64,000 nt of DNA from Candidatus Saccharimonadales bacterium (GTDB lineage Bacteria > Patescibacteriota > Saccharimonadia > Saccharimonadales > UBA10212). This document shows, one piece after another, positions 1,175 to 61,982 of the stretch. Where the stretch lies: positions 5,828-69,827 of the forward strand of contig DATIHL010000007.1 of the NCBI GenBank assembly GCA_035480715.1, read 5' to 3'. The notes below the pieces were generated by a model. The model was given only the letters and a program-made list of their open reading frames with translations. It searched no databases and had not been told where the DNA came from. How positions within the stretch are numbered: position 1 is the first letter of the stretch; each line of letters starts with the position of its first letter. Position numbers and translations under genes: made by a program.

Positions 1175-1304
1175 ACCGCTTATGTTGTGTAAAATATGTT
1201 GTAAATCGTAGGAATGGCGTTGCGCGCACTCATAGAGCAAGTTATACTAGTTTTAAAATAAAGAAGCAAACATAAGAATTACTCTTAAATTGGAGGATAT
1301 AAAG

Positions 1305-1827: not shown

Positions 1828-2247
1828 TTAGCTTGTAACTTGTTTTAGGACGAACCTAACCAAGACTTGGGCTAGAGCTACGATGATTAAGCCTATAACT
1901 GCATAGAGGATAGTATTTTTGGCACTTGTTACACCTGTATCGCTACCGCCGCTGGTGATATAGCGCAGGCCGCCCACAATAATCATAATTACAGCTACTA
2001 CGCCCACTATCAGCGATAGAAGGTTAATTACCGTATGGATAAGATTATTGATCTTGGCCGTAGCATCACTCGTACCGCTACAATCGCCAGTAGGATTATC
2101 AGTAAAGTGCAATTCAGCACCGGCGCATAATCCACTGTTAATCTGCTGCTGGCCGGTTTGAGCATAGGCTGGTATAGACTGACCCAAGAATAGTAAGCCG
2201 GACAAGCAACCAATACTTAGGTACAGCCTCATAAGAAATCTTGTCAT
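1828..2247 (-). CDS. T4SS pilin-like protein (VirB2/TrbC-type), paralogue 1
   Basis: 139 aa. It has a signal-like N-terminus ending ..SIPAYA, then a two-Cys variable loop (CAGAELHFTDNPTGDC). The conserved two-helix module follows: INLLSLIVGVVAVIMIIVGGLRYITSGG..AKNTILYAVIGLIIVALAQVLVRFVL. Confidence 0.65.
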   Translation of the reverse strand: MTRFLMRLYLSIGCLSGLLFLGQSIPAYAQTGQQQINSGLCAGAELHFTDNPTGDCSGTSDATAKINNLIHTVINLLSLIVGVVAVIMIIVGGLRYITSGGSDTGVTSAKNTILYAVIGLIIVALAQVLVRFVLKQVTS

Positions 2248-2290
2248 GGTTATTTTTAGAGTACAGTTAAATTAACTGAAAAAGCAAGTT

Positions 2291-2740
2291 CTAGGTAGCT
2301 TGCGTAGTCTTTTGTAGTACAAACCTGACGATGACTTGGGCTAGGGCTACGATAATCAAGCCGATTAAGGCATAGAGTATGGTATTTTTGGCAGCAGTAA
2401 CTTTCTCGCTGGAACCGCCACTAGTGATGTAGCGGAAGCCGCCAACGACGATCATGATTACGGCAATCACACCGACAATTACTGATAAAATATTGATTAT
2501 TTTGGTAATTATATTATTGAAATTACTAGTAGTATCTTCGACGGTACAGGTTGTAGAGCCGGTACTGCCTAGGTTTGAAGGAATGGTTTGCGAGAAGTCG
2601 CCGTTGGCTGTAGTACAAACTTGCCCGGTAATTGGGCTATTGGCAGTTTGGGCGTTAACCGCAACGGGCACAGCTAGTGGTACCGCTACCACCAATGCAG
2701 CGCTGAGAGACATTAACGTGTTTTTAATTTTTTGTAACAT
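2291..2740 (-). CDS. T4SS pilin-like protein, paralogue 2
   Basis: 149 aa. Signal-like N-terminus (..VAVNA) and a two-Cys loop (CTTANGDFSQTIPSNLGSTGSTTC). The C-terminal module is INILSVIVGVIAVIMIVVGGFRYITSGG..AKNTILYALIGLIIVALAQVIVRFVL. Confidence 0.65.
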   Translation of the reverse strand: MLQKIKNTLMSLSAALVVAVPLAVPVAVNAQTANSPITGQVCTTANGDFSQTIPSNLGSTGSTTCTVEDTTSNFNNIITKIINILSVIVGVIAVIMIVVGGFRYITSGGSSEKVTAAKNTILYALIGLIIVALAQVIVRFVLQKTTQAT

Positions 2741-2813
2741 TTTGGTTAGTTCCTTTATTTGGTTTATCTAATTACCTATAAGTATATATGCACTTTTATG
2801 TTAGTCAAGATGC

Positions 2814-3245
2814 TTATACTTTAGTGGTTTTGGCTAGCACGAACCGGACGATGACTTGGGCTAGAGCTACGATGATTAAGCCAATAATCGCGTATAGTAG
2901 CGTGCTTTTAGCTGATGATATTTTATCGGAAGAACCACCGCTGGTAATATACCGAAAACCAGCAATCACTATCATGATTACGGCAATAACAGCGACGATT
3001 ACAGAGATAAGATTAATAATCTCGGTAATAATAGTATTGAACGTTTTAGTTTCAGCAGTCCCGGTGGGACATGCTGCCGCGGTCCCTTCAAGATGAAGGT
3101 TTTGCGCTCCAGAGCAAACTCCTTGTTGAACCGCGTCAGCTGCCAAAGCCGACACGGGGAGTAAAAGATTGAAACTTAACAAAAACGCTAATGCTAGCAT
3201 GGAAGCTTTTATTTTATTAATCATTTTGATCCTATCTATACTCAT
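2814..3245 (-). CDS. T4SS pilin-like protein, paralogue 3
   Basis: 143 aa (an alternative ATG at 3224 is possible). Signal-like N-terminus and two-Cys loop (CSGAQNLHLEGTAAAC). It carries the same C-terminal module. A 29-bp stretch at 2854-2882 is identical to 1865-1893 in paralogue 1. Confidence 0.65.
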   Translation of the reverse strand: MSIDRIKMINKIKASMLALAFLLSFNLLLPVSALAADAVQQGVCSGAQNLHLEGTAAACPTGTAETKTFNTIITEIINLISVIVAVIAVIMIVIAGFRYITSGGSSDKISSAKSTLLYAIIGLIIVALAQVIVRFVLAKTTKV

Positions 3246-3247
3246 AA

Positions 3248-3637
3248 TTATTGTATTACTTTGCCAAGCACAAACTTAACAATCGTCTCTGCTAGGGCTA
3301 CTATAACCAGCCCTATAAGGGCATAGATAATGGTCTTTTTAGCGCTAGCCACGGCTTGGTCATTGCCACCGCTGGTAATATAGCGAAATGCTCCAATCAC
3401 TAACATAATCACAGCTACTATTCCAACTACTGTAGACAAAATGTTGATTATAGCATCTAAGGTTTTATCTAGACTGCCGGTTGGAGCTGCAGCTGTACAA
3501 CCCTGACCAGCTGCGGCATTAATGCCGCACTGTATATCGCTTTTTGTAGCTGTGGCAGCTAAAACAAGGTTGCTCGAGGCAAAGATTGAAATGGCAGAGA
3601 TTGCTGTGAATAGTAATATACTTTTTATTTTATTCAT
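3248..3637 (-). CDS. T4SS pilin-like protein, paralogue 4
   Basis: 129 aa. Signal-like N-terminus (..NLVLA) and two-Cys loop (CGINAAAGQGC). The module is INILSTVVGIVAVIMLVIGAFRYITSGG..AKKTIIYALIGLVIVALAE. Confidence 0.65.
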   Translation of the reverse strand: MNKIKSILLFTAISAISIFASSNLVLAATATKSDIQCGINAAAGQGCTAAAPTGSLDKTLDAIINILSTVVGIVAVIMLVIGAFRYITSGGNDQAVASAKKTIIYALIGLVIVALAETIVKFVLGKVIQ

Positions 3638-3644
3638 CGTTTTA

Positions 3645-4061
3645 TCATTGAATCACTTTATCAACTACAAATCTAGTGATAGTCCAAGCCAGAGCTACTA
3701 CTACAATCCCAATAAGTGCATATATAATTTGACGCCGGGCACCAGCTGCCTGTTCAGCGTTACCGGCGGCTGTAGCATACCTGAGCCCACCAATAATTAT
3801 CATGATAACTGCTATAACGCCCGTAACAACGGCAATAACATTAGCAGCTACACTAATGACGCCGTTAGGCCCAGCGATCGGATCTGTAGTGCCTTGTTGC
3901 TTAGCTTGAGTACAGACATTACTATTAGCTCCGTTACATGCCTGGCCAAATAAACATGCCTGGCCTTTACAGGCTTGCGCCTTAGCAACTGACGCGACGG
4001 AAACCATTGACGTGACTAAAATAAGTGCTAAAACCATTATCTTCAAGATTTTTATCATCAT
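3645..4061 (-). CDS. T4SS pilin-like protein, paralogue 5
   Basis: 138 aa. Signal-like N-terminus and a four-Cys region (ACKGQACLFGQACNGANSNVC). The module is diverged: VTGVIAVIMIIIGGLRYATAAG..ARRQIIYALIGIVVVALAW. Confidence 0.6.
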   Translation of the reverse strand: MMIKILKIMVLALILVTSMVSVASVAKAQACKGQACLFGQACNGANSNVCTQAKQQGTTDPIAGPNGVISVAANVIAVVTGVIAVIMIIIGGLRYATAAGNAEQAAGARRQIIYALIGIVVVALAWTITRFVVDKVIQ

Positions 4062-4339
4062 AGTCGTACTACTACAAAATTAACTATGGCTGCAGCCGAA
4101 GCTGCAATGATCAGGCCAATAAGCGCATAGATGAGCATGTTTTTGGCCTCGGCTATTTTATTAGGCTCACCCTGAGCAAATACGTAACGCAGTCCAGCAA
4201 TTACTATCATTAGAAACGCCAATGCGCCAACGATAATAAATATAATATTTAAAATTTTAGTAATGTCGTCTTGTGTGGCGTCATTATGATGGGGAAGGTT
4301 ATTCGCGTTAAGAAGTCCTTGTGCGATGTAATTAATCAT
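4058..4339 (-). CDS. T4SS pilin-like protein, short paralogue 6 (no signal peptide or Cys loop)
   Basis: 93 aa. It has only a short polar N-terminus followed by the two-helix module IVGALAFLMIVIAGLRYVFAQGE..AKNMLIYALIGLIIAASA. It overlaps paralogue 5 by 4 nt. Confidence 0.55.
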   Translation of the reverse strand: MINYIAQGLLNANNLPHHNDATQDDITKILNIIFIIVGALAFLMIVIAGLRYVFAQGEPNKIAEAKNMLIYALIGLIIAASAAAIVNFVVVRL

Positions 4340-4348
4340 TATGGTTAT

Positions 4349-4732
4349 TTATGTTAGTGTATTGGCGAGAAATGCCACCAGGCCAGTGGCAATCAAGGCT
4401 ATCGCTAGACCTATTAAGGAATTATACAAGCGTTTACGTGCAGCAGCAGCCTTTTCTGGTTCGCCGGTAGCAGTAATATACATTATCCCTGCGATTATTA
4501 TCGATATAACTGCTACAAAACCAGCGAGTCGAACTAGCATGTCCAAGACCGCTAAACCGATCAACCAGAAGTCATTGATGTTAAAGCCGCTAACAGTAGG
4601 TGTGCAATCTGGCCCTAAATTCAAATATTTGTACCAGGTCGGCAGGAAAAAAAAGAACCTAGTTTTATTACCGCAATCCACCGCAAAAACAAATGGTAAA
4701 TATTTTATAAGCGCTATTGCGGGTAAAATCAT
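4349..4732 (-). CDS. T4SS pilin-like protein, divergent paralogue 7
   Basis: 127 aa. The N-terminal part is different, with two Cys (VDCGNKTRFFFFLPTWYKYLNLGPDC). A two-helix module follows: VAVISIIIAGIMYITATGE..ARKRLYNSLIGLAIALIATG. Confidence 0.55.
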   Translation of the reverse strand: MILPAIALIKYLPFVFAVDCGNKTRFFFFLPTWYKYLNLGPDCTPTVSGFNINDFWLIGLAVLDMLVRLAGFVAVISIIIAGIMYITATGEPEKAAAARKRLYNSLIGLAIALIATGLVAFLANTLT

Positions 4733-4735
4733 TAC

Positions 4736-5014
4736 TTAAAATACCCCTTGTCCCGGTATAAGCCACTTTATAAATGCATACACGAAAATGAATGCAAAAA
4801 GTGCAATTAAGGCATTTGTGATTCGTTGTTTTGCAGATTGTATACCATTTGGATTGTCGCCAGATGCGGCGTATTGGATACCGCCTAGTATTATTGCACC
4901 GACAACCACAACTCCTACTCCAATGGCCAGAAAATCTACGAATTTTTGAATGTCGTTCCAAATAAACTGACTATCATCGGCAAAATTATGGCTCACAATT
5001 TTTAATATTTGCAT
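4736..5014 (-). CDS. T4SS pilin-like protein, short paralogue 8
   Basis: 92 aa and first in the minus-strand operon. The module is IGVGVVVVGAIILGGIQYAASGD..AKQRITNALIALFAFIFVYA. It has no signal peptide. Confidence 0.5.
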   Translation of the reverse strand: MQILKIVSHNFADDSQFIWNDIQKFVDFLAIGVGVVVVGAIILGGIQYAASGDNPNGIQSAKQRITNALIALFAFIFVYAFIKWLIPGQGVF

Positions 5015-5090
5015 TTTTATACGTTAACTTGATTAAAACTATACCATAACTTGACATAGTGCATTCAAGTTTTTCAATGCCAGTTACAGA

Positions 5091-5119
5091 TTGTCGATTT
5101 ATAATGCTTATGATATAGT
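5091..5119 (+). promoter_or_regulatory. candidate sigma70-type promoter for the VirB6-like gene
   Basis: TTGTCG (5091-5096), a 17-nt spacer and TATAGT (5114-5119), about 30 nt upstream of ATG 5151 in the divergent intergenic region. This is a pattern match only. Confidence 0.3.
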
Positions 5120-5150
5120 GCTGGTAAATATATAGATGTAGAACAAACAG

Positions 5151-7979
5151 ATGAGCATCAGACAAAAATTTGGAATTGGGCTAGTGTTACTTTTAACGCT
5201 TACTGCAGTGAGTATTTTTCTGCCCAAAAAAGCTTCTGCTGCTACATTGTCAGATGCGTCCTTTAAATCCCCGACAGCAACATACAATGTGACTGCTACC
5301 TATAAAGCTAGTGATGGCTCGTCCTACTACCCAAGCGATCTTCTGTTATTCATATCAGGCGTAACTCCTCTAACTGGTCAGTTGTTTTTTAATGATAGCA
5401 ATACCTCAGATGGAACTTACCAGTTAAAGTTTAATGGCAACACTTATGTTTGCCCGGGAGCTACGATTGATGTAAACAAAGGTTCTCTACAAGCGATACC
5501 AAATAATGGTGGTACGCAATGGACTGGTGTATTGAACCTTAAGTATGTAACAGATTCTATGGCAAATTGTAGCAATGGATCGTCTATTACATTAGCTCCC
5601 ACAACTATTACGCTTGTGGATAAAAGCACCTCGCTATGTAGCGATAGTAGTGCACCGGATGCAAATGGCAAATGCTCCGATGGCAGTGTAGCGCTACCTA
5701 TCGCAAATATACTTAATGGCACTACCCCTTCATGTAGTAACGGCTTTCAAAACCCGCCAGCGTGTGATACTTGTTTAAACGGAACGACGATCACCCCTTG
5801 TACGAGTGACTCACAAACTTCTCCTCCACCGCTAGCTGCCAGCGCCACAGCTACCACTTGCGAGGACGCTTTCAGCTGGTTGTTTGAATGGATAGTTTGC
5901 CCGGCACTGAGAATGACTAGCAACGCAGCAGGAGCGCTGAATGATTTCATTGAAGGACAACTATGCGTGAACTCCGGTGCTAGTACTACAGGAGGGGCAA
6001 CATGTACTAATACAGCTAGTATTTACGGTAGCAATAACCCTGATTCATCACAGGTACACCAGGCATGGGATTCTTTTAGAAAGATTGCCACTGCACTGCT
6101 AGTCATTCTGATGCTGGTGATGGTGATTGCACAGGCTTTTGGCGGCGGACCGTTTGAAGCTTACACCGTCAGGAAAATGCTTCCCAAGATAGTAGCTGCT
6201 GTCATTTTGCTGCAGTTTTCTTTCGTCCTCACTAAATTTGCAATTGATATTTCCAACGACCTAGGGAAGGGTATCCAGGCATTGCTTTACGCGCCATTTG
6301 GCGGCCCTGGCGCTATGGGATTGGATAAACTAGTGGGGCATACTTTAGCTAATCAAAATCAGGGTCTTAACGACTCTGCATTGTTTTTTACTGCATTGGC
6401 GCTTGGTACAGGACTAGCAATAGGTGCTATAAGTTTGCCTCTAATCGCTCTGTTGGCACTTTATGTGTTGCTGGCGCTGTTTACAGCCTTTGTTGTGCTG
6501 GTATTGCGAAAGCTTTTTATTATTCTTCTAATAGTACTTGCCCCAATAGCTTTCGTTCTGTGGATTCTACCAGGCACCGAAAAATACTGGAAAATGTGGA
6601 AGGATAACTTTACCAAACTGCTAATGATGTTCCCGATTATTATGGCACTAATTGCCGCCGGAAGAATTTTTGCCCTTATAACATCCACTTCTCAAACAAC
6701 CGCTCTAATGCCGCATTTGGCAGTCGCGCATCTTGGTCCGCTCCCTGTTCCCTACTTTAGTAAAGTGACCACTTTTATTGACTTGGTTATTGTGCTTTTG
6801 GCGTTTTTTGGCCCATACTACCTGCTGCCTAAAGCATTTACGTGGGGAGGAGCGCTTATGGAGATGAGCGGTAAAGGAGTTAAAGCCGGTCTTGATAAAG
6901 TCGCAAGCCCAGGAAAAGAATATCTTAACTGGCGCCAGGGTATAACACCTTGGAAACAGGCCCGCGCTGCCCGCAGAGCAGAAATAGAGAGGCGATCGAA
7001 AACTGGTTTTTATGAAGGTTTAGCCTCTGGTGGAATCCGTGGTGGTATTAGACGCGCAAGACTCGGTGGCGTCCCAAGGCCTACCAGAGGCGGTATAGAG
7101 AATGAAAGATCACTTCGTGGCAGAATAGTACAGCAAGCCGAAGCCGAAATCGAAAAAAACCGAAGAGAAGAAATTCAACGTGCTACCCTACAATTAATGC
7201 AGCGGGATTTAGCACAATATCATCCCGATGATCATGACCGAATAAGGAGAGCTATTATCAGCGGCGAGACACTCAATGACGTCCACTTAGCACATGAAGA
7301 TACAGTAGATCCGGTAACCGGTGCTGCCATAGCTGGCACGCATGAGTTCAATGGGGCAGAATATGCAGGCACACATGACCATGGATTGCGGGCAGCGCTT
7401 GATAGAGGCGTAGTTCATGGACACTGGAGAGATATAGAATCGTATGTTAGGCGAACTATGGCTAGTGGAGATCAGGAACGAATAGCTGAGCTGCAAGATT
7501 TCTTGCAACAAAATTCGGCAGCTATTGGCGATCAAATGACACATCTTCTTAAAGGTATGAATATTGCCGCTACCAGTAAGCCAGAAAGCATTGTCAAAAT
7601 GAGACAAGAAGAGATAGAAAGCGTATTAGGCACACTCAGTAGTAGAGTAGCCGGCGGAGGCCCAGGGGCTGCTGAAGCTGCGGGCCAGCTAAGTGTCTTT
7701 TTACAGAACTATGCTACTACGGCTGCTGATGGCCGACTGCGCACACAGCTTGATCAAGGTGGAGCCAGAGCAGTAAAGGCTTTTGTAGCTAACGATCCCG
7801 GTATGCTGGATGTGATAAATAACGATCCTGCCCACGGCGGTCTGGATGCTCGCGCAAGGCTAGGGTTGGATACTGTAGACGGAACAGTAGCGCTTGGATT
7901 AGCCGCAGCCGACCCTACTACCGGTACCTCTATGAGAGATCTGCATGCTCGTATTTCTGATACCGGCGTTATTAGATAG
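5151..7979 (+). CDS. VirB6/TrbL/PrgH-like polytopic T4SS membrane protein with a Cys-rich exodomain and a long cytoplasmic tail
   Basis: 942 aa. The signal peptide ends ..KKASA and 12 Cys lie in the first ~290 aa. A block of about 7-8 TM helices spans roughly aa 310-570. An Arg/Glu-rich soluble tail of ~370 aa follows. Its position next to the pilins and upstream of the PrgI/VirB4 genes matches Gram-positive T4SS synteny. No sequence-specific motif was recognised. Confidence 0.55.
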   Translation: MSIRQKFGIGLVLLLTLTAVSIFLPKKASAATLSDASFKSPTATYNVTATYKASDGSSYYPSDLLLFISGVTPLTGQLFFNDSNTSDGTYQLKFNGNTYVCPGATIDVNKGSLQAIPNNGGTQWTGVLNLKYVTDSMANCSNGSSITLAPTTITLVDKSTSLCSDSSAPDANGKCSDGSVALPIANILNGTTPSCSNGFQNPPACDTCLNGTTITPCTSDSQTSPPPLAASATATTCEDAFSWLFEWIVCPALRMTSNAAGALNDFIEGQLCVNSGASTTGGATCTNTASIYGSNNPDSSQVHQAWDSFRKIATALLVILMLVMVIAQAFGGGPFEAYTVRKMLPKIVAAVILLQFSFVLTKFAIDISNDLGKGIQALLYAPFGGPGAMGLDKLVGHTLANQNQGLNDSALFFTALALGTGLAIGAISLPLIALLALYVLLALFTAFVVLVLRKLFIILLIVLAPIAFVLWILPGTEKYWKMWKDNFTKLLMMFPIIMALIAAGRIFALITSTSQTTALMPHLAVAHLGPLPVPYFSKVTTFIDLVIVLLAFFGPYYLLPKAFTWGGALMEMSGKGVKAGLDKVASPGKEYLNWRQGITPWKQARAARRAEIERRSKTGFYEGLASGGIRGGIRRARLGGVPRPTRGGIENERSLRGRIVQQAEAEIEKNRREEIQRATLQLMQRDLAQYHPDDHDRIRRAIISGETLNDVHLAHEDTVDPVTGAAIAGTHEFNGAEYAGTHDHGLRAALDRGVVHGHWRDIESYVRRTMASGDQERIAELQDFLQQNSAAIGDQMTHLLKGMNIAATSKPESIVKMRQEEIESVLGTLSSRVAGGGPGAAEAAGQLSVFLQNYATTAADGRLRTQLDQGGARAVKAFVANDPGMLDVINNDPAHGGLDARARLGLDTVDGTVALGLAAADPTTGTSMRDLHARISDTGVIR

Positions 7980-8018
7980 ACATTTTTCATGCTTTAAAGT
8001 ACTAGAACTAGATCCTAC

Positions 8019-8047
8019 TTGATATATTATGCGTAATATGTTAAAAT
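8019..8047 (+). promoter_or_regulatory. candidate promoter for the GC-rich 4-TM ORF
   Basis: TTGATA (8019-8024), a 17-nt spacer and TAAAAT (8042-8047). The RBS GGGAGGA at 8093-8099 precedes ATG 8108. Confidence 0.35.
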
Positions 8048-8107
8048 ATAGAAAGTCGAAGTTGTTATTTCGGCTTGTTCTTCTTCAACTTTTGGGAGGA
8101 TACAAAG

Positions 8108-8611
8108 ATGTTCTGGGCAGTAATCTTCGGATTTGGCGCCTGGGCCGTAATCGGATACCTAATCCCGTCGGCCTCCGACCATCTCACAGCAGCCAGGAAG
8201 ACGGATGAGAAGCTACGGCAGACGCTGGATGCCCTCGCTATGGCGACAGCAGCAGACAGGCCCAACTTGCTGCGGATAGCTGAGCGGCACAGGCAAACGC
8301 GCAACGACCACTACTGGAGAGCAGCGCCTTGGCTGGTTGGCAGCCTGGGCCTGTATGTCTGGGGTATCTGGGCTCTGAGCCTGGGTTTCTCTGGAAGTCA
8401 GACAGCCGTTCTCGTGTTCGGGACAATGTTCCTGGGCGCGGCCTTTGCGTTGATCAGGCAACGAAGGCGTAACTGGCGGCGGTTTGCAGGTTGGCGGACG
8501 ATCCCCGACCCCCTCGTCCGTCGGCGCACTTTCGTAGCCTCAAGACTCAATGCTGTTGGGCTGGTAATTTGTCTACTGGCCGGCAGTCTGATCCTGGGCT
8601 TCGGCCTGTAG
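8108..8611 (+). CDS. hypothetical 4-TM membrane protein encoded on a GC-rich insert
   Basis: 167 aa from ATG 8108 (the track ORF begins at 8075). There are four hydrophobic helices: FWAVIFGFGAWAVIGYLIP, PWLVGSLGLYVWGIWALSLGF, AVLVFGTMFLGAAFALI and AVGLVICLLAGSLILGFGL. The loops are positive-inside (RQRRRNWRRF). Third codon positions are strongly G/C-biased, unlike neighbouring genes. Confidence 0.55.
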   Translation: MFWAVIFGFGAWAVIGYLIPSASDHLTAARKTDEKLRQTLDALAMATAADRPNLLRIAERHRQTRNDHYWRAAPWLVGSLGLYVWGIWALSLGFSGSQTAVLVFGTMFLGAAFALIRQRRRNWRRFAGWRTIPDPLVRRRTFVASRLNAVGLVICLLAGSLILGFGL

Positions 8612-8757
8612 GCCACCACGCGAGAGGAAGGTGATAGCAGTTGGACAAGCTGCTTTACCGGTTCGGGCTTGGACTGTTCAAGGTCCTCGCTCGGGCTGCC
8701 CGCACATTGGTCAATTGGCTGTTTCATCGCCCATGAGACCAGCACATCCTCCCTAGA

Positions 8758-8791
8758 CCCAGCCGTAGTTGCACATTGAACTACGGCTGGG
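8758..8791. repeat. 13-bp perfect inverted repeat (stem-loop) in the GC-rich non-coding tail
   Basis: CCCAGCCGTAGTT-GCACATTG-AACTACGGCTGGG. The loop octamer GCACATTG also occurs at 8702-8709. Confidence 0.6.
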
Positions 8792-8827
8792 CAGGCCTAG
8801 TGGAACGATCAAGTTCAAGGGGCTAAA

Positions 8828-8881
8828 CGGCAGGAGTTTTGAGTGATCCATTCACTCACCACTTCCTGCCGCTTTTCATTT
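8828..8881 (+). terminator. compound hairpin plus T-run; candidate intrinsic terminator closing the GC-rich insert
   Basis: The outer stem is CGGCAGGA (8828-8835) paired with TCCTGCCG (8864-8871). The inner stem is GAGTGA/TCACTC. CTTTTCATTT follows the structure. Confidence 0.45.
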
Positions 8882-8894
8882 ATAAACGCTTATG

Positions 8895-8921
8895 TTGCTA
8901 TGAGCCATAAATTGGTATACT
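8895..8921 (+). promoter_or_regulatory. candidate extended -10 promoter for the PrgI-like/VirB4 operon
   Basis: TTGCTA (8895-8900), a 15-nt spacer and TGgTATACT (8913-8921). The spacer is short, so confidence is low. Confidence 0.3.
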
Positions 8922-9030
8922 AAAAATAGCTGAAAGCTCAGAGCTGAGGGCCGAGAGCTCTAGAGAATGAGAACAAATAAATACATTAATGTAGCTAAGG
9001 ATTACAAGCTAACAGCTTAAGGCTAATTTT

Positions 9031-10041: not shown

Positions 10042-10088
10042 AAGATCCAACACTAACAAAAAGCCAAAAGGGTGGAAATATTTAGTTT

Positions 10089-10874: not shown

Positions 10875-10876
10875 AT

Positions 10877-12913
10877 ATGCTAGGATTTGGAAAGAAAAAA
10901 GCCGACCAGCAGCTGCATCCTCTAGAACAACAGGAAGCCCGTCAAACTAAAGAGGTGAAGGGCGACTATCAAAAGGGTATTACGGCACTGCGCGATTTTA
11001 TTGCCCCCAGTTCACTAGAGTTTAGCGGCAAATATTTTCAGCTTGGCACGCGCTATGCCCGCACTTATTATGTTTACGGTTATCCGCGGCAAGTTTACAC
11101 CGGTTGGTTATCTGGAATTATCAATCTAGACGAGATCATTGATCTTTCTATGATAATTCAACCTGTACGCACCGAAGTTATCCTTAATAATCTACGTAAA
11201 AAAGTGTCCCAGCTTGAAGCTGGCATCCAAATAGATACTGAAAAGGGCAGGGTGCGCGATCCGGGCAAACAAGCAGCTATCCAGGATGCCGAGGAAATGC
11301 GCGATAAACTACAGGTTGGCGAGGAGCGATTTTTCCGTTTTGGTTTTTACTTTACGGTTTACGCCAACTCGGTGGATGAGCTAGAAGTTATATGTAATAG
11401 GGTAGAATCATTGCTCGGTCAACAACTGGTGTATTCCAAGCCGGCAAGCGCCCAGCAGGAACAGGGACTAAATAGTACTATCCCGCAGTTTGTTGACCAG
11501 TTGCAGATTTACCGCAACATGAATACGGGTGCTATTTCTACTAGTTTCCCATTTACTTCGGCCGATCTTACGCAGGAAAACGGTATTTTGTATGGCATTA
11601 ACATGCATAATTCTGGATTGGTGCTTTTTGACCGCTTCACGCTTGAGAATGGCAATAGTGTCGTATTTGCCAAGTCCGGAGCTGGCAAAAGCTTTACCGT
11701 GAAGTTGGAAGCACTGCGTTCCATGATGTTCGGCACTGAAATTTTTATTATTGACCCCGAAAATGAATACCAGAAAATGTGTGAGGCCGTAGGTGGAGCT
11801 TATGTACGCTTAAGCCTCAATAGTGCAACCCGCATCAACCCATTTGATCTACCGCAAGTCGTAGATTCCGAGGAAGCCGATAACGCTCTTCGCTCCAACC
11901 TCATTACCCTCCACGGATTACTGCGTCTGATGATGGGCGGCGCGCAGGCCCAAATGATGCAAAGCGGCGGGGCAGCTATGGCGCCGGCGCTTAATCCAGC
12001 CGAAGAAGCCGACCTAGACACTGCTTTGATTGAAACTTATGCCAGAGCTGGCATAACAAGCGACCCCCTAACCCACGGTTCTACGCCGCCAACAATCAGC
12101 GATCTTTACGACACTCTGCTTCATATGGGCGGCACTGGTCCGCAGCTCGCTCAACGCTTACGTAAATACACCAGTGGTACTTTTGCTGGTATATTCAGCC
12201 AGCAGAGCAACGTCAATGTCAACAATCCGATGGTGGTGTTTAATATTCGCGATTTAGAGGATGAGTTGCGTCCGGTAGCTATGTATATTGTGCTTAATTT
12301 CATTTGGAACAAGACTAAGGCTGATAAGAAACGCCGAATTCTAATCGTCGACGAAGCCTGGCAGCTGATGCGCTATGAAGACAGCGCCAATTTTATGTTT
12401 TCACTCGCTAAGCGTGCTCGTAAATATAACCTTGGTCTTACGACCATCAGCCAAGACGTAGAAGATTTTATGGCTTCACGCATGGGGCGGGCTATTGTAG
12501 CCAACGCCAGCATGCAGTTTTTGCTTAAGCAGTCGCCGAGTGCCGTTGATGTGCTGGCTGATGTATTCAAGCTGACGTCTGAAGAGAAAAAACGCCTGAG
12601 CCAATTCCCGATTGGCCAAGGCCTATTCTTTGCCGGCCAAAATCATGTACATATCCAGGTTATCGCCAGCCCCACTGAAGAAAGTTTGATTACATCAAAC
12701 CCGGCCCCAGTTCAACAAAATCAAATGGCACAGTTGCAGGGTGTGGCAGATTCGCAAGGCCCCCCCACCTCGAGCATTGCTCTTCCGCCTCAACAACCCT
12801 TGTCTCCAGCCGTTCAAATGGAAGCACCGGTATCACTACCGACAGGCGTGCTAAATTCGCAGGATTTGAACCAGCCACCATCGCCAGAAACGCCACAACC
12901 ATCGGGAGTATAG
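10877..12913 (+). CDS. virB4: VirB4/TrbE/PrgJ-family T4SS ATPase
   Basis: 678 aa with Walker A FAKSGAGKSFTVK and Walker B RRILIVDEAWQLM. Family-typical N-domain strings are present (RTYYVYGYPRQVYTGWLSGI). The last ~70 aa form a P/Q-rich tail. Confidence 0.9.
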   Translation: MLGFGKKKADQQLHPLEQQEARQTKEVKGDYQKGITALRDFIAPSSLEFSGKYFQLGTRYARTYYVYGYPRQVYTGWLSGIINLDEIIDLSMIIQPVRTEVILNNLRKKVSQLEAGIQIDTEKGRVRDPGKQAAIQDAEEMRDKLQVGEERFFRFGFYFTVYANSVDELEVICNRVESLLGQQLVYSKPASAQQEQGLNSTIPQFVDQLQIYRNMNTGAISTSFPFTSADLTQENGILYGINMHNSGLVLFDRFTLENGNSVVFAKSGAGKSFTVKLEALRSMMFGTEIFIIDPENEYQKMCEAVGGAYVRLSLNSATRINPFDLPQVVDSEEADNALRSNLITLHGLLRLMMGGAQAQMMQSGGAAMAPALNPAEEADLDTALIETYARAGITSDPLTHGSTPPTISDLYDTLLHMGGTGPQLAQRLRKYTSGTFAGIFSQQSNVNVNNPMVVFNIRDLEDELRPVAMYIVLNFIWNKTKADKKRRILIVDEAWQLMRYEDSANFMFSLAKRARKYNLGLTTISQDVEDFMASRMGRAIVANASMQFLLKQSPSAVDVLADVFKLTSEEKKRLSQFPIGQGLFFAGQNHVHIQVIASPTEESLITSNPAPVQQNQMAQLQGVADSQGPPTSSIALPPQQPLSPAVQMEAPVSLPTGVLNSQDLNQPPSPETPQPSGV

Positions 12914-12929
12914 TTGGTAAATTACGCTA

Positions 12930-15386
12930 ATGGCTACAACTACCAGAACACCAGAAAGAAAACCAGAAGAGGATAATAACCCCGGGCAGGAGGACTTCGA
13001 CAAATTAATAGACAAGAACTTCAGCAGCGGAGATGAACGAATGATGGAGGAGCGCGCCAAAAAGGGCGCAGCTAGTCCAGAAGACTTAGCTGAAGACGAA
13101 AAAAAAGCCGGCGGGCCAGCAGAGGCCAAAGGCGCTACAGACGAATCTAAGCGCTTGCAGCCGACCCATGAAAATACTGTCGGTGACGGCTATAAGGGCT
13201 CAGGGCTTAAAAAAGAAATGCGCCTGAGTTTTGGCAGACTCAAAATTACAAAAAAACGCGGCATAGGCGCCGGAATCATTGCCGCCATTTTAGCTACCCT
13301 AATTGCTGTGTTCACTATTACATCCGGCCCGCTGCAGCTACTTCATTTGGCACAAATACTTAAAAAAAGCTGGCACCACCAGGAAAAAATATCGGTCCAC
13401 AGATCTAAAGGCTTATTCCGCTACTTTAGAGCAAATAACATTGGAGAGACTCGTGTAGGCTGGGTGGGTAGCAAAGTTATGACGCGACTAACGGGCCAGC
13501 TTAAAGATGTAGGCGTAACATTCGAAACCAACTCCAATGGCTCGCCAATTAAAGCCACGATAGATACCAGCAAGCACCCCGAATTTCAGGATTTACTCAA
13601 ATCCGAAAGGCGAGACCAAGTTATTAAAGTTTTTGAGGCCGATCCGAACTTGGTCGGTCAATTACGTGAAGGAAGATTTATAGATATAACTTTCGGCCCC
13701 AACACATTTAAAGGCATTGATTATGTTAGATTTTTCCTTAAGACATCGCTAGACCATCTACAGAGTGGCGCTATCGCAACCGCCCTTAGCTTTAGGGTTG
13801 CAACTAGATTCTACGACGTGCCAAGTCTGTTCCACCCACTTAAACGAGCCTTAGCCAAAATTAAGAATGGTGTAGTGGCTGAAACTCCTATAGAAACTAG
13901 GCAGCAGGAAGAAACGCGAAACCAGAATTTGGAAAGATCGGTTACCGAGAATCCAGAAGCCGTGAGCGCCAGGGATAAAGTTAAAGACGCGCTAGGAAGA
14001 GATGACATCCAGACAGCAGTAAGAACGCTTAACGCTGCATTGATTGGAGAAGCCGCTCTTTGTAGCATCTGGGATGCGACAGGCAAGATTGTTCAGTATA
14101 ACCGTTACTTTGTCGTCTTGCCCACGGTACTCCAGGCGGTGGACAAAATGGCCGCTGGCTCTCAAGCTCAATCTGGTGAGGATTTTTACCTAGGGCAGCT
14201 CGGTGCAATAGTTACAAGCTTTAAGGACGCAAATGGTAAAACTATTTGGAACTCCAAGCCTCTACAAGTGTTGGCAGGCAACCCGAATCCGGGCGGTCAA
14301 GATTTACCTAAAAAATACGGTGAAGCCTTCCATGGAAGTACGACCGCCGATAATATAAGGCAGAAGCTAAAGGAATTTGGCATAAGCGGAGGTACATTTG
14401 GAAGCTGCGGTCTATTCGGGCAAATCCTTAGCGGCCTAACTAATGCGTTTTTAATTGTAGCTGGATTCTTCACATTTGGAGGCACGTGGGCAACATATGC
14501 AGCAAAGACGGCTGCTACTGCAGCTGCATTTGCGGCCGTAATGATTATTGCTCAGCAACAATTTGAAGATCTTATAAATAATACCGATGTAGTTCCTAAG
14601 ATCCTGAGCGGCCCATTGGGCGGCAGTCTTTTGGCATTCGGCTCCCGCGAAGCAGCTAATATCAGTGCTCGCTCTTCGGGTGGTACTGCTATGCCAGGCA
14701 CAAGTACCACGACTTTATCCCTTAATGATCAGAGGCAGGACCAGCAACAATTCCAATCCGAACCTTTTGCTAAAAGAGTGTTTGATGTACATGACTACCG
14801 TTCTGTCATATCAAAGCTCATAGATAGGCCGAGCACCAGTCCGTCGGAAAACTTAAGCAGTGTTGCGAATTTCTTCGCACATCCGGCAAGACTTTTCTCT
14901 GGTCTATTTTCAGTAATGCAGCCGCATGTCCAAGCCGCCGGTACATATGACTGGGGATTCCCGCAATATGGTATAGAGGAGGGCTTAGCAACAGACCCAA
15001 ATTACCAAGATCCCTACGACAACGGGGATAAAGTTGCCGTTATGTTAGATAACGGTGGATGCGCTGATGATAGCAACAAACAAGATAACGGTTGTAGCTT
15101 GAGAGACAGAGCCATGAACTGTTTTGGTGTTGATATAAGTAAATATAGCACCGACGCCAGTAAGTATAGTTTAACAAGTTATGGAGATCCGGGACAGTGG
15201 AGTGCCGTCGCTGTTAAAGATGTCGACCCATACAGCGACGGCTACAAGAACGCTAGATGCGATGACACCAGTACAGAATGGCAAAGAATAAAGTTGTTTG
15301 TTTTTGATTCGCGCTTAATGGATTCTATGGCCTGTTACGATAACGACGCCCAATCATGTACAAATGTGGCTTCTTCTAACGGATAG
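12930..15386 (+). CDS. large orphan membrane protein of the T4SS locus
   Basis: 818 aa. The N-terminus of ~110 aa is acidic/basic and looks disordered. A TM helix (GAGIIAAILATLIAVFTI) is followed by a later hydrophobic pair (LTNAFLIVAGFFTFGGTWATYAAKTAATAAAFAAVMIIA). The last ~110 aa contain 6 Cys. No family recognised. Confidence 0.65.
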   Translation: MATTTRTPERKPEEDNNPGQEDFDKLIDKNFSSGDERMMEERAKKGAASPEDLAEDEKKAGGPAEAKGATDESKRLQPTHENTVGDGYKGSGLKKEMRLSFGRLKITKKRGIGAGIIAAILATLIAVFTITSGPLQLLHLAQILKKSWHHQEKISVHRSKGLFRYFRANNIGETRVGWVGSKVMTRLTGQLKDVGVTFETNSNGSPIKATIDTSKHPEFQDLLKSERRDQVIKVFEADPNLVGQLREGRFIDITFGPNTFKGIDYVRFFLKTSLDHLQSGAIATALSFRVATRFYDVPSLFHPLKRALAKIKNGVVAETPIETRQQEETRNQNLERSVTENPEAVSARDKVKDALGRDDIQTAVRTLNAALIGEAALCSIWDATGKIVQYNRYFVVLPTVLQAVDKMAAGSQAQSGEDFYLGQLGAIVTSFKDANGKTIWNSKPLQVLAGNPNPGGQDLPKKYGEAFHGSTTADNIRQKLKEFGISGGTFGSCGLFGQILSGLTNAFLIVAGFFTFGGTWATYAAKTAATAAAFAAVMIIAQQQFEDLINNTDVVPKILSGPLGGSLLAFGSREAANISARSSGGTAMPGTSTTTLSLNDQRQDQQQFQSEPFAKRVFDVHDYRSVISKLIDRPSTSPSENLSSVANFFAHPARLFSGLFSVMQPHVQAAGTYDWGFPQYGIEEGLATDPNYQDPYDNGDKVAVMLDNGGCADDSNKQDNGCSLRDRAMNCFGVDISKYSTDASKYSLTSYGDPGQWSAVAVKDVDPYSDGYKNARCDDTSTEWQRIKLFVFDSRLMDSMACYDNDAQSCTNVASSNG

Positions 15387-15411
15387 TCGTGAAATGATGG
15401 GCATTAATCGA

Positions 15412-16644
15412 ATGAAAAATAACAAAGTAAAAAAAGCAAGAGTGATGCTCAATCTTGCATTGAGCATCACTTTAAGTTGCATACTTCTATTAGTAGAGAT
15501 GCCCTTTAAGGCCGGAGCAATATCGACCGATCAAAGAAGAGTTTACAACTCTGGTACTTATTATTATGATTCCAGCAGCACTTCAACTACTGGAATTGGT
15601 GGCTGCCAAACCCCGGGTACGCAGCTACCTGGAAATACAATCGGGGAACAGGTTTTTAACTTTTTTGTTACCACCGGTGGCTTTTCGAATGAATCTGCTG
15701 CAGCGATAACTGGCAATCTACAGGTTGAGTCGGCCGATTTTACTGTAATTGATGGCTGGGGTGGCGGAGGCGGAAACTACTACGGTATTGCTCAGTGGTC
15801 CAGGGATGATAGATATGTTAAGCTCGTCCAATTTGCCGGTAGCACTCAAAATGCCGCTCAATTACCTTATCAATTAAACTTTATAATGTACGAGCTGAAG
15901 AATGGCTACAGCTCAACTTTGACGTATTTACAAAGCCCCAATTATTCAGTGTCAGAAAAAGCCATTTACTGGGGCAGAAACTATGAGGTGGCTGTCAATG
16001 CAGACGGTAGCCTACAAGCCGAGGCCCAGCGGGTAGCTGACGCACAAATTTGGTATCAGAGAGCTACGGGCAATCCCGCTCCACCAGACACTTCTCCAAC
16101 CGGCAACTGTACGGGCAATGGTTCCGGATCCGGAAATGGAGGTGGTGGAGGCGGAGGTGGAACGGTTGACGGTTGTACTAATCCGTTCCCCGGTGGGTGG
16201 GCGCCCAGCCGTTTGGACATGGGCTACGACGGGACATTTAGTGGCCAAGTTGCTGCGCCATGCGCGGGTACAATCACTTATGCCTCCGATAGTTTCTCGA
16301 ACTGGGGGGGTTGGATTGAGATAAAGCTCGATCAAAAACCCTCCACCTTAGCAACCTCAACTATTTATTTTGCTGAGGGTATTTCGCCAATAGTCCGCTC
16401 TGGGCATGTTAATGCTGGCGACCCGATTGGCAACGCCGTTCCAAATAGAAATTGGAACGGTATCGTCGGCAATATTGAGTGGGGCGTAGCTCAAGATGGA
16501 TCCGTCGGCACCCCAACCAACACCTATGTCTATGGACAATGCGGCTCAGCAGGAGCCGCCGCGTCAGTTTTTGCCTTTGTCCAGTGGGCAGAATCACTCG
16601 GGGTCGCAGCGCCCACATCGACTGATAACGCAGGTTGTCCATGA
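15412..16644 (+). CDS. secreted cell-wall hydrolase: phage-tail-lysozyme-like domain plus degenerate LytM/M23-like domain (VirB1/PrgK analogue)
   Basis: The start is taken at MKNNKVKKARV.. (ATG 15412). A signal anchor is followed by FSNESAAAITGNLQVESADF..YGIAQWSRDDRY..QLNFIMYELKNGY, a phage-tail-tip-lysozyme-type pattern. A Gly-rich linker (GNGSGSGNGGGGGGGG) separates it from an M23-shaped segment: DMGYDG..APCAGTITY..GGWIEIKLD..GHVNAGDPIG. Confidence 0.7.
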   Translation: MKNNKVKKARVMLNLALSITLSCILLLVEMPFKAGAISTDQRRVYNSGTYYYDSSSTSTTGIGGCQTPGTQLPGNTIGEQVFNFFVTTGGFSNESAAAITGNLQVESADFTVIDGWGGGGGNYYGIAQWSRDDRYVKLVQFAGSTQNAAQLPYQLNFIMYELKNGYSSTLTYLQSPNYSVSEKAIYWGRNYEVAVNADGSLQAEAQRVADAQIWYQRATGNPAPPDTSPTGNCTGNGSGSGNGGGGGGGGTVDGCTNPFPGGWAPSRLDMGYDGTFSGQVAAPCAGTITYASDSFSNWGGWIEIKLDQKPSTLATSTIYFAEGISPIVRSGHVNAGDPIGNAVPNRNWNGIVGNIEWGVAQDGSVGTPTNTYVYGQCGSAGAAASVFAFVQWAESLGVAAPTSTDNAGCP

Positions 16645-16686
16645 ACAATGATTGCTGCTTTTATAAAATTGCGGGAGAATTAAATA

Positions 16687-18063
16687 GTGAATGCCCAGCC
16701 AAACATTAAAAGAATCCTTTTACTAGCGACCGTTGTGCTGGTGTCGATATTTTTACTTTGGTGGCTCTGGCAATACTTACATACCGGCACTATCACTATT
16801 ACTACCAACGATAAAAACAATCTGATCGAAATAAGACAAGATAAGGCATCCAAGGATATCAAACAAGCTAAGGGTAGCCTTAAGCTCAGCTTACACACCG
16901 GAAAATATTATGTAGTTGTAAGTAATAGAGCTTCCTCTACCACGCAATACACTTTGGCTAAAGCCCGTCAGGCCAGTAGTTACAAAATTGATGTAGAAAA
17001 CCTCATAGAACCTGAGCCAGTTCTTCCTTATGGTGCTTACAATATTTTAGCCGGCCCTCAGATATATTACGTAAGCATGAAGGATAATTTATTATATAAA
17101 ATCGATCGAGGCGGACAACCTGCAACATCAAGTAAAGTTGATTTTACTAAGATAAAGTGGCAAAACGAAAACTATGGCGCAGGTATTAATGACGCCGGAG
17201 ATAAACTGTATAGAATAAGCAATAGTGGCGTTACCGCTGTTGGTTTGCCGTTTGAATCAAATCTTATAGTGTTTGATTTGTCCAAAAATGGGGTTCTAGT
17301 AACCTCCGATGGGAAGTCTGTATACATAAGTTCTGGCGGAGCATTTAATAAGATCTACTCTTCAAGCGAAAAGATAACCGATATAGCAATCGGCGACAGC
17401 TACATTCTACTAGCTACGCTAAAGGCTCCTGCTAAGAATAATGACAAACAATCTTTCAAAATTATCAATCTTCAAGGTAAGGTGCAGTCGGCTTCCGATA
17501 TATCTGCTCATGATTATGCCTGGTCTCCAAACGGTAAATACCTAGCTATTACTAGCAATTCATCAACTACCATTTATGATACTAGTTTTAAGGTTGTAAG
17601 CCACCTGCCAGATGCTAGCGTAGTTGCGTTAACTTGGCTTAATGATAATGCTCTACTATACGGGCTAGGCTCAAACTTATTTAGCTACAATCTACAAACT
17701 ACTCAGAGTTCTCAGCTAGCAGCGTTGCACGGCGCAAGTATATCTGGTATCTACCCTGGCCAAGATGGATCTCAAGTTTACTTATTAGAACAAACCACAG
17801 GCTCTAAAGCTCACTCGTTTATGACAACTCGTCTTAATCTTAATAAAAGTGTGCCACAGTACATATATCTATACGGGCTACTCCTACCAGTCCAAATATA
17901 TAATTGTAAAGTCAGCTATGTTAACTTTAGCCAGCCTCTAGTTTCAGTATTGCCTTCTTCAAGTTCTGCGAGTGATAGTTGTATTCAATCTGCAAAAACT
18001 TACTTAGCTAAAGACGGGCTTGATGTTAATAAATTCAGTTTTTATCCTGAGCCCTCGAGTTAA
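16687..18063 (+). CDS. membrane-anchored hypothetical protein, possible beta-propeller (TolB-like repeats)
   Basis: 458 aa from a GTG start. It has an N-terminal TM helix (ILLLATVVLVSIFLLWWLW). The body is beta-rich and repetitive, with an AWSPNGKYLAITS motif typical of TolB/DPP-IV-type propeller blades. Confidence 0.5.
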   Translation: MNAQPNIKRILLLATVVLVSIFLLWWLWQYLHTGTITITTNDKNNLIEIRQDKASKDIKQAKGSLKLSLHTGKYYVVVSNRASSTTQYTLAKARQASSYKIDVENLIEPEPVLPYGAYNILAGPQIYYVSMKDNLLYKIDRGGQPATSSKVDFTKIKWQNENYGAGINDAGDKLYRISNSGVTAVGLPFESNLIVFDLSKNGVLVTSDGKSVYISSGGAFNKIYSSSEKITDIAIGDSYILLATLKAPAKNNDKQSFKIINLQGKVQSASDISAHDYAWSPNGKYLAITSNSSTTIYDTSFKVVSHLPDASVVALTWLNDNALLYGLGSNLFSYNLQTTQSSQLAALHGASISGIYPGQDGSQVYLLEQTTGSKAHSFMTTRLNLNKSVPQYIYLYGLLLPVQIYNCKVSYVNFSQPLVSVLPSSSSASDSCIQSAKTYLAKDGLDVNKFSFYPEPSS

Positions 18064-18165
18064 ACCAATAGTCGGCATAAATCTTTAAGTCCCCTCGAAA
18101 ATTACTTGACTTTACCTATATTTTGTGATTTACTATTAATGTTATAAAAGGGCGGTCGAGTCAAC

Positions 18166-18738
18166 ATGGGCGTGAACCAATCCGAAAGAACCAATAATTT
18201 TATATCCAGGCTGATACCTGAAAGCCGGCCTGTTAGATATGGTATTGTCCTTGGCCTATCATCGGCTGCATTAGCGGGCTGTGGCGGAAAGGCAAGACTT
18301 GGCAACGAGCAACGAACCCCAGCGGGCCAAGAAGCTTCTCAGCCGGCTCCTCAACAAACTCTGCCCAAACCTAACGAAGTAGCCGCCGCTCCACAGCCGC
18401 AGCAAGAACAGACACCAGAGAATATTGATTATTCCTCCCCAACGAACGTGGCTATGGCATTTGTCGAAGCGGCGGTAGAGGCAGATGGAGAGACCTTCTG
18501 TCAGCTATCCTGGGATAGCGGATGTGACCCCGGTGTTGTTTCAGGCCACGGCAAACGACCTTCATATTTAATACCAACGGGGGTTCAATCATCTGCAGAG
18601 AAAGGCCTCGGAGTTGCAGAAGTTGACTTAATAACAAAAGACCGGGGATTGTGGTGTGTACAGCTAAACAATAATAAAGGTCGCTGGTTAGTTGATTTTT
18701 ATAGTACAGCCCCCCCGGGCGCCCAATGTAACCAATAA
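18166..18738 (+). CDS. putative lipoprotein
   Basis: 190 aa. It has a lipobox-like LAGCGG after a hydrophobic segment, then a P/Q-rich linker and a small Cys-containing C-terminal domain. Confidence 0.6.
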   Translation: MGVNQSERTNNFISRLIPESRPVRYGIVLGLSSAALAGCGGKARLGNEQRTPAGQEASQPAPQQTLPKPNEVAAAPQPQQEQTPENIDYSSPTNVAMAFVEAAVEADGETFCQLSWDSGCDPGVVSGHGKRPSYLIPTGVQSSAEKGLGVAEVDLITKDRGLWCVQLNNNKGRWLVDFYSTAPPGAQCNQ

Positions 18739-61952: not shown

Positions 61953-61982
61953 TGTGAATACTTAACTTGTTAAGCATTCACA
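61953..61982. repeat. member of the TACTTAAC/GTTAAGTA palindrome family (14-bp arms, one mismatch)
   Basis: TGTGAATACTTAAC-TT-GTTAAGCATTCACA covers the stop codon of the yjbQ-like gene (61970-61972). Confidence 0.8.

Follow-up and report, generated by a model that had tools for sequence, protein, structure and literature searches.

The stretch of DNA analysed here, 64 kb from contig DATIHL010000007.1 of the metagenome-assembled genome of a Candidatus Saccharimonadales bacterium (hereafter the window, to which all coordinates refer), carries a locus for a type IV secretion system (T4SS) at 1828-18738. The locus contains genes for eight VirB2-type pilins, a VirB6/TrbL-like protein, a PrgI/VirB3-like protein, a TrsD-like open reading frame (ORF), a VirB4 ATPase, an anchored large protein, a lysozyme, a beta-propeller protein and a lipoprotein. 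The main operon lies on the plus strand and diverges from the pilin operon on the minus strand across a 136-bp spacer (5015-5150). An ORF listing and scans with Pfam and NCBIfam models reproduced, position by position, the inventory of an earlier note on this DNA that had been made from the sequence alone. In the NCBI annotation (locus tags VLE51_008xx), VirB4 is labelled 'DUF87 domain-containing', and the other members that were looked up are labelled 'hypothetical'. We concluded, with a probability of roughly 0.85, that the locus is the chromosomal T4SS which Saccharibacteria (class Saccharimonadia, Patescibacteria) inherit vertically, and that SEML1_0004-0019 of Southlakia epibionticum ML1 is its orthologous, syntenic counterpart.

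Related loci were collected by a tblastn search with VirB4 against a species-level genome collection. Relatives were found in 225 of 283 candidate stretches, and the 80 best were compared with the window. In these 80 best loci of the 225, VirB4 was 74-87% identical to the window protein over the best tblastn segment, and the genomes were labelled almost without exception as Candidatus Saccharibacteria or Saccharimonadales.

A complete inner-membrane core

VirB4 (10877-12913, plus strand, 678 amino acids (aa)) belongs to the CD1110 family related to the MPF-FATA class. It scored 361 bits against NF045971 (cut-off, 325 bits) and also matched P-loop_TraG and AAA_10. Its closest solved structure was a Gram-positive VirB4, 4AG5 (E 1.6e-49), and it matched CedB weakly (E 1e-12). 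With Walker A (AKSGAGKS) and Walker B (ILIVDE) motifs intact, the ATPase looks active. It was the sole ATPase of the VirB4/VirD4 superfamily found in the window.

The ORF directly upstream (10089-10874, plus strand, 261 aa) matched the NCBIfam model TrsD (NF041427, E 1.6e-7). It covered positions 2-122 of the CD1110 VirB4 model, whereas VirB4 itself matched positions 183-732 only, and the two ORFs thus represent consecutive parts of the same model, as the earlier note had proposed when it described a VirB4 N-domain encoded by an ORF of its own. Both were present in 80/80 related loci and formed separate ORFs in 69/69, and the arrangement is therefore a conserved split and not a frameshift. For the same reason, a pseudogenised VirB4 broken into two pieces was rejected as an explanation.

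The PrgI/VirB3-like protein (9031-10041, plus strand) has an N-terminal membrane hairpin followed by a long cytoplasmic tail. Its match to PF12666 was sub-threshold but covered positions 1-89 of the 91 in the model (E 1.4e-4), and all 23 of the 23 orthologues matched the same family, with a best E-value of 3.4e-12, which upholds the assignment.

The gene at 5151-7979 (plus strand) encodes an extended VirB6/TrbL-like polytopic membrane protein of 942 aa. A scan for transmembrane (TM) segments put five or six TM helices at residues of about 312-559, between an N-domain that is Cys-rich and exported and a cytoplasmic C-domain that is helical. With the alternative start at 5184 the product has 931 aa, and an identical 931-aa product has a precomputed match to PF19590 (TrbL_3). 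PF04610 (TrbL) was matched by 6 of 25 homologues, and the current copy of Pfam gave no match for the window's own protein. When an AlphaFold model (pLDDT 66; 70-89 in the TM region) was compared with the PDB by Foldseek, the six best matches were all TrwI/VirB6 chains of R388 (E 4.5e-3 to 6e-2, probability 1.0, modest TMt of 0.39-0.48). A sequence profile of the family searched against PDB sequences returned coiled-coil noise only; the VirB6 assignment made by the earlier note therefore rests on TrbL/TrbL_3 and on the Foldseek matches, both of which agree with it.

Searches of each ORF with hidden Markov models, which the note had proposed as a check, gave family matches for every core component. 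The locus encodes a complete monoderm-type inner-membrane T4SS core, derived from the MPF-FATA class, together with a set of pilins and envelope hydrolases.

Between the VirB6-like gene and prgI lies a small Arg-rich ORF (8075-8611, plus strand, 178 aa; 167 aa according to the gene caller) with three TM-like segments, whose status is uncertain. It matched no family in Pfam or NCBIfam, and the corresponding interval held no homologue in 42 related loci, so it is perhaps not a gene. A stretch of about 420 bp without ORFs separates it from prgI. The GC content of 7000-9030, a region that spans the 3' part of the VirB6-like gene and this ORF, is about 0.50, compared with a window mean of about 0.45.

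An ordered array of pilins

The eight pilin genes lie head to tail on the minus strand. All eight, as the earlier note had recognised, exceeded the gathering score of Pfam PF18895 (T4SS_pilin, 26.6 bits), with scores of 32-59 bits. The first four form one subfamily (pil1-4): pilin 1 (1828-2247; 51.1 bits), with a signal peptide and two TM helices, also matched TrbC (31.7 bits) and the pilin-like NCBIfam model Mbov_0395; pilin 2 (2291-2740; 58 bits) is 52-56% identical to pilins 1 and 3; pilin 3 (2814-3245) scored 57.2 bits and pilin 4 (3248-3637) scored 57.1 bits. The other four are position-specific types. Pilin 5 (3645-4061; 45.9 bits), pilin 7 (4349-4732; 35.4 bits) and the promoter-proximal pilin 8 (4736-5014; 32.2 bits) have positional orthologues across species, and so does pilin 6 (4058-4339; 58.6 bits), a short protein without a signal peptide whose orthologues are always 91-108 aa long and occupy the same place in the array. 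The VirB2 layout was evident, with a signal peptide in 6 of the 8 pilins and two hydrophobic helices around an R-Y-x-T/A-x-G loop. Mean pairwise identity among the eight was 36% (range, 17-56%), and the pil1-4 members were 45-56% identical to one another. The intergenic region from which both operons diverge (5015-5150) is the presumed promoter region; matches to a sigma-70-like consensus were found on its plus strand at 5077-5105 and 5091-5119.

We typed the pilins of arrays with at least five genes by comparison with the eight of the window (42 arrays including the window, from loci among L004-L080). Across species, the order was the same: one to four copies of the pil1-4 subfamily, then pil5, pil6, pil7 and pil8. 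The array of the window, with eight genes, was the largest of the 34 arrays that were bounded on both sides, the others holding five to seven, and it arose through expansion of the pil1-4 subfamily. Because types and order are conserved, the pilins would be specialised subunits and not interchangeable variants; positional orthology suggests a division of labour among them rather than simple variation. In a survey of the phylum, pilin diversity was read as possible versatility in host range (PMC12102498), whereas the array described here consists of conserved, position-specific types.

Fixed chromosomal position and tests for mobility

On the right, the locus abuts replication genes, as the earlier note had stated. 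Pfam confirmed recF (18747-19799), dnaN (19818-20903) and dnaA (21176-22564), all on the minus strand, and recF is convergent with the last T4SS gene at a distance of 9 nt. On the left are two tRNA-Ser genes (238-330 and 344-430, minus strand), a ComFC-like phosphoribosyltransferase gene (482-1240, minus strand) and an Hsp20 gene (1290-1775, plus strand), as in ML1. This position is kept across related genomes, a comparison that the note had called for: recF was found on the opposite strand, 4.6-8.3 kb past virB4, in 56 of the 58 loci whose sequence extends 9.4 kb or more beyond virB4 on the right. The pilin array was present in 37 of 38 loci with enough sequence on the left, Hsp20 in 26 of 38 with enough left flank, and a relative of ComFC in 15 loci.

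In the two exceptions, L020 (7811-11896) and L025 (7933-11896), a PrgI-TrsD-VirB4 triad had no pilin array, VirB6-like gene or recF in its neighbourhood. Pfam placed the L020 triad among housekeeping genes (ValRS, TsaD, a Mur ligase and GroEL), and the ORF layout of L025 was nearly identical. Mobile elements were rejected as an explanation of L020 and L025, given the housekeeping surroundings of the L020 triad. Since the triad is separated from its usual neighbours there, the locus can be dispersed.

We also considered whether the locus is an integrated conjugative element (ICE), or the decaying remnant of one, with its relaxase, coupling protein and integrase beyond the window. The core genes do descend from the conjugation machinery of monoderm bacteria, as VirB4 passes the model of the CD1110 conjugal ATPase and the locus has TrsD in common with pGO1/pIP501. 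The tRNA-Ser genes, a common target of integration, lie about 1.4 kb from the locus, and the search for mobility genes covered the 64-kb window of the genome. On the other side, a Pfam scan of 43 other ORFs of at least 100 aa in the window (all except those at 58682-59086, 61970-62353 and 62381-63007, of 127-208 aa) revealed no relaxase, VirD4/TcpA ATPase or integrase/recombinase among the scanned ORFs, in line with what the note had reported. No direct repeats bracketed the locus, no fragment of tRNA-Ser was duplicated, and the base composition of the locus was not distinct from that of its flanks. The ComFC/Hsp20 flank is common to the window and ML1 and recurs in the related loci counted above. 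Only 109 relaxases were counted across Patescibacteria genomes, 15 of them near virB4 (PMC12102498). A patchy distribution among relatives and attachment sites, which the note had named as the signs of an ordinary ICE, were both absent, with the same position and order in 56 of the 58 species-level genomes and no bracketing repeats. Because the position is fixed, the locus is not an ICE. That explanation, which we regard as very improbable, was rejected after the mobility-gene scan, the search for repeats and tRNA fragments and the distribution over the 80 species loci had all been negative. Conjugation is likewise highly unlikely as the function.

DnaA-box-like 9-mers with at most one mismatch occurred 24 times in the window. 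Five of them lay in the two short intergenic regions that flank dnaA, at 21095 and 21148 (region 20903-21176) and at 22636, 22699 and 22732 (region 22564-22806), and these clusters support a putative origin at this place. An 87-aa ORF at 20920-21183, within the first of these regions, is probably spurious. The 13.6-kb main T4SS operon (5151-18738) points at dnaA and the putative oriC and would thus be transcribed head-on to the replication fork, whereas the pilin operon would be co-directional with it. This arrangement was kept in all 60 loci that include recF and in ML1.

Relation to known systems

In S. epibionticum ML1, an 'apparent T4SS (SEML1_0006-0019)' of Gram-positive-type composition, with a series of essential pilins and without a coupling protein or relaxase, was described by Wang et al. 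(2023, Cell, PMC10633639), and the cluster was essential for epibiotic growth in transposon sequencing (Tn-seq; PMC10633639), while comEC was dispensable (PMC10633639, PMC12857230). Table S1 of that study gives the order dnaA, dnaN, recF, two small exported proteins, a lysozyme/peptidase, a 1113-aa protein, VirB4, a 293-aa ORF, PrgI, two VirB6-like proteins flanking an NTF2-like gene, six pilins, Hsp20, ComFC and tRNA-Ser (PMC10633639). The window has the same order and both flanks in mirror image; the pilins stand within a Gram-positive-type cluster in both, and neither has a relaxase or coupling protein. The two loci differ in their details. The window has eight pilins and ML1 six, and one large VirB6-like protein where ML1 has two (0011 and 0013). 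The NTF2/VirB8-like gene of ML1 (0012) has no recognised counterpart in the window, and the large protein lacks the C-terminal M15 peptidase of ML1 0007. The hydrolase of the window has one lysozyme domain, in contrast to two plus a Cys protease in ML1, and the tail genes encode a beta-propeller protein and a lipoprotein instead of prealbumin-like and PEGA proteins.

The phylum survey by Quinonero-Coronel et al. (2025, Microb Genom, PMC12102498) described VirB4 with affinity to MPF-FATA, TrsD beside virB4, a PrgI-type VirB3, VirB2 arrays of 2-11 genes, a near absence of relaxases and a location close to dnaA and dnaN, and concluded that the T4SS of Patescibacteria was co-opted for a non-conjugative role. 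The locus of the window shares each of these features, without any essential difference, and is one more instance of that clade. A FEMS review of 2025 (PMC12857230) repeats the non-conjugative view and raises, as a speculation, a pilus conduit through which host material would be taken up. Since every element of the earlier note's interpretation is in print (PMC10633639, PMC12102498, PMC12857230), the system was already known: the finding is accurate and its interpretation sound, yet it is a rediscovery of a described system and not a new kind of system.

Among plasmid systems, pGO1/pIP501 of Firmicutes (TrsC-TrsD-TrsE...TrsG, MPF-FATA) have the same order of VirB3-like protein, TrsD and VirB4 and a cell-wall hydrolase downstream, and they share with the window a monoderm architecture that lacks VirB7, VirB9 and VirB10. 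Those plasmids are mobile and carry a VirD4-type coupling protein, a relaxase and oriT but no VirB2 pilins, whereas the locus of the window is chromosomally fixed. The earlier note had likened the gene order to prgH-prgI-prgJ-prgK of pCF10 (Enterococcus faecalis). The likeness is approximate: VirB6-like protein, VirB3-like protein, VirB4 and hydrolase do follow one another in this order, but TrsD lies between 'I' and 'J' and the gene for the 818-aa scaffold between 'J' and 'K', the hydrolase belongs to another family, and no VirB8-like protein was recognised. Neither the PrgB adhesin nor PrgL/VirB8 of pCF10 was found in the window, and pilins are present in the window but absent from pCF10.

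The note's overall proposal, a domesticated, non-conjugative, origin-adjacent T4SS of Gram-positive type that serves host interaction, was borne out by the absence of a DNA-transfer module, by the fixed position and by the essential syntenic cluster of ML1. Several points weigh against this reading or parts of it. The PrgI-like protein scored 22.8 bits against PF12666, below the curated cut-off of 27, and TrsD scored 31 bits, far below the family cut-off of 200. No VirB8-like component was recognised in the window with Pfam, NCBIfam or phmmer against the PDB. GC skew showed no sign change at dnaA, so the term 'origin' is inferred from gene content and DnaA-box clusters only. Essentiality is extrapolated to the window from one cultured relative, matched by gene order and flanks, and the role of the T4SS in Saccharibacteria has been called completely unknown (PMC11665869). 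Lastly, a coupling protein encoded at a distance is possible, as VirD4-like genes abound in other parts of Patescibacteria genomes, with 5,713 homologues counted, most of them a long way from virB4 (PMC12102498).

Envelope proteins downstream of virB4

In every locus, the genes after virB4 follow one pattern: the first encodes a protein of 787-1300 aa and the second a hydrolase of about 190-850 aa, in most cases 380-850 aa, after which there are usually one to three small genes. In the window, the first of these is a large membrane-anchored, helical, Cys-containing protein of 818 aa (12930-15386, plus strand), which we describe as a putative scaffold and which has no C-terminal enzyme domain. 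The earlier note had called it an orphan; this did not hold, as homologues were found at 29-43% identity, mostly longer and with a C-terminal VanY peptidase in 6 of 15, and SEML1_0007 is its positional equivalent. An AlphaFold2 model of moderate confidence (pLDDT 60.8) gave no match with E <0.5 in a Foldseek search against the PDB, and fold assignment was dropped.

A survey of the C-terminal 330 residues in 61 orthologues of the large protein found VanY in 18, M23 in 6 and a GDSL lipase in 3. Lysozyme, M14, CHAP, GDPD, beta-lactamase-like, M74, EEP and Amidase_5 domains each occurred in a single case, and about 25 of the 61, including the window copy, had no recognisable enzyme head. The large protein may thus be a conserved anchored scaffold whose C-terminal head is swapped between species, with domains also exchanged with the neighbouring lysozyme gene. 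We found no description of such swappable heads in the literature searched, which is weak evidence of novelty.

The hydrolase gene (15394-16644, plus strand) probably starts at 15394 (416 aa, as in the gene call) rather than at 15364. Its product has a signal anchor, a Phage_lysozyme2 domain (PF18013, E 1.1e-20), a Gly-rich linker and an unassigned C-terminal domain, which recurs at the end of a 1081-aa ORF downstream of virB4 in another locus (L069:6273-9518, E 1.6e-55). A phmmer search against the PDB gave no matches for this protein, C-terminal domain included. PrgK combines a lytic transglycosylase with CHAP, whereas the window hydrolase carries Phage_lysozyme2. Of the earlier description as a PrgK/VirB1-like hydrolase, the cell-wall hydrolase part therefore stood, but the lysozyme family differs from that of PrgK. 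The protein is predicted to be a functional analogue of VirB1, PrgK and CwlT.

The next gene (16687-18063, plus strand) encodes a membrane-anchored exported protein of 458 aa with a PEGA/Ig-like region and a beta-propeller. A search of cluster representatives placed its family in 458 clusters at 50% identity; PD40 was matched by 6 of 30 members, and a profile searched against the PDB matched WD40-type propellers (E 7.7e-8), so the propeller suspected in the earlier note was corroborated. Strong matches at this position occurred in only 4 of 61 loci, which marks it as a lineage-restricted accessory gene. The last gene (18166-18738, plus strand) encodes a lineage-specific 190-aa protein with an LAGC lipobox, in agreement with the note's lipoprotein. 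It matched no family in Pfam or NCBIfam, had no homologue in the 61 loci and no match by phmmer against the PDB, and forms a singleton cluster. Speculatively, it might be the NTF2/VirB8-like component that was not recognised in the window. Of the four members for which the note had seen no recognisable family, this lipoprotein alone remained; 10089-10874 is TrsD, 12930-15386 has homologues and 16687-18063 contains the beta-propeller.

Possible function of the system

Saccharibacteria, which are ultrasmall parasites, are unable to make nucleotides, amino acids or lipids and depend on their hosts for building blocks. Two DNA importers, ComB (Helicobacter) and Ced (archaeal), belong to the T4SSs that do without a coupling protein and a relaxase. 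Both resemble the window in this respect and in having a VirB4-family ATPase, and they set a precedent for inward transport; ComB is, however, a diderm VirB2-10 system, the pilins of Ced are unrelated, and homology to the locus is confined to VirB4. For another lineage of Patescibacteria, a preprint (10.64898/2026.06.21.733656) describes tubular structures where parasite and host meet and the use of host RNA as food. Because the importers lack the same modules, because of the host dependence for building blocks and because of that preprint, we favour uptake of macromolecules from the host, be they nucleic acids or other building blocks, as the direction of transport, at slightly less than even odds, and hold it to be somewhat likelier than the export of effectors. 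As for mechanism, established T4SS biology suggests that hexamers of VirB4 would dock to the membrane through PrgI and VirB6, pull pilins out of the membrane and polymerise them into a tubular pilus. The hydrolase and scaffold proteins would open the peptidoglycan, either the cell's own or that of the host, and the machine would form a conduit at the interface between epibiont and host. The idea of a pilus conduit, or of uptake, is already present in PMC12857230 and PMC11665869.

As an exporter, the machine would deliver effector proteins, or the envelope-degrading enzymes encoded next to it, to the interior or the surface of the host bacterium. Export was what was first speculated for the T4SS of Saccharibacteria (PMC10633639, PMC11665869), and it is the commonest role of non-conjugative T4SSs. 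The hydrolases downstream of virB4, with their highly variable heads (VanY, M23, GDSL lipase, GDPD, EEP and others), resemble a polymorphic payload, and although the locus has no coupling protein, Brucella VirB and Bordetella Ptl export without one (PMC12102498). These hydrolases, however, carry Sec-type anchors and therefore need no T4SS to exit the cytoplasm, and neither effector candidates nor secretion signals were identified. Export alone would also leave unexplained why the system is essential in organisms that need building blocks from outside. We consider export less likely than not, yet a strong rival to uptake.

An adhesive pilus or contact organelle that attaches the cell to its host without transporting any substrate would fit the eight pilin genes, among which no fewer than five conserved types are represented, and the beta-propeller and PEGA-like proteins at the surface; no substrate-recruiting ATPase was found among the scanned ORFs of the window. 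Adhesion and motility of Saccharibacteria, however, are already served by two type IV pili (PMC11623550, PMC10633639, PMC11665869). The VirB6 channel protein and an active-looking VirB4 are retained, the latter in 80/80 loci, and the dedicated peptidoglycan hydrolases suggest penetration of the envelope over binding to a surface. A purely adhesive role thus seems improbable, well behind export, and uptake through a pilus conduit remains the reading that we prefer.

The four ancient, position-fixed pilin types pil5-pil8 with an expandable subfamily of major pilins, and the swappable heads of the scaffold, are both possibly undescribed. We suggest tentatively, with the odds leaning against it, that they might jointly form a polymorphic, T4SS-linked tool for breaching a host-specific envelope. 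If true, the system would consist of a pilus of specialised subunits and a polymorphic tool fitted to the envelope of a particular host species. Positional orthology of the pilins and swappable enzyme heads are testable and could guide experiments on host specificity. To the best of our knowledge, the T4SS of Saccharibacteria is the sole T4SS known to be essential for its owner, and we know of no other monoderm T4SS with VirB2-type pilins; the system is among the most interesting problems in the biology of Patescibacteria. The value of the window is comparative, as it presents a minimal form of the system, in which the VirB6-like gene is single, the scaffold has no enzyme head and the hydrolase has one lysozyme domain.

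A surface-glycan cluster in the window

Apart from the T4SS locus, 24919-56880 is occupied by a surface-glycan/exopolysaccharide cluster with many transferases of GT1, GT2, GT4 and GT11, two Wzy-like genes and an ABC-2 exporter. GDP-mannose dehydratase and epimerases, methyltransferase fusions and GtrA are also encoded there, and the GC content falls to 0.40-0.43 at about 29-35 kb. Within the cluster, 43051-45063 encodes a 670-aa protein whose C-terminal domain is Ig-like (N_BRCA1_IG); its gene lies beside two ORFs without a family, and the protein is possibly a surface adhesin.

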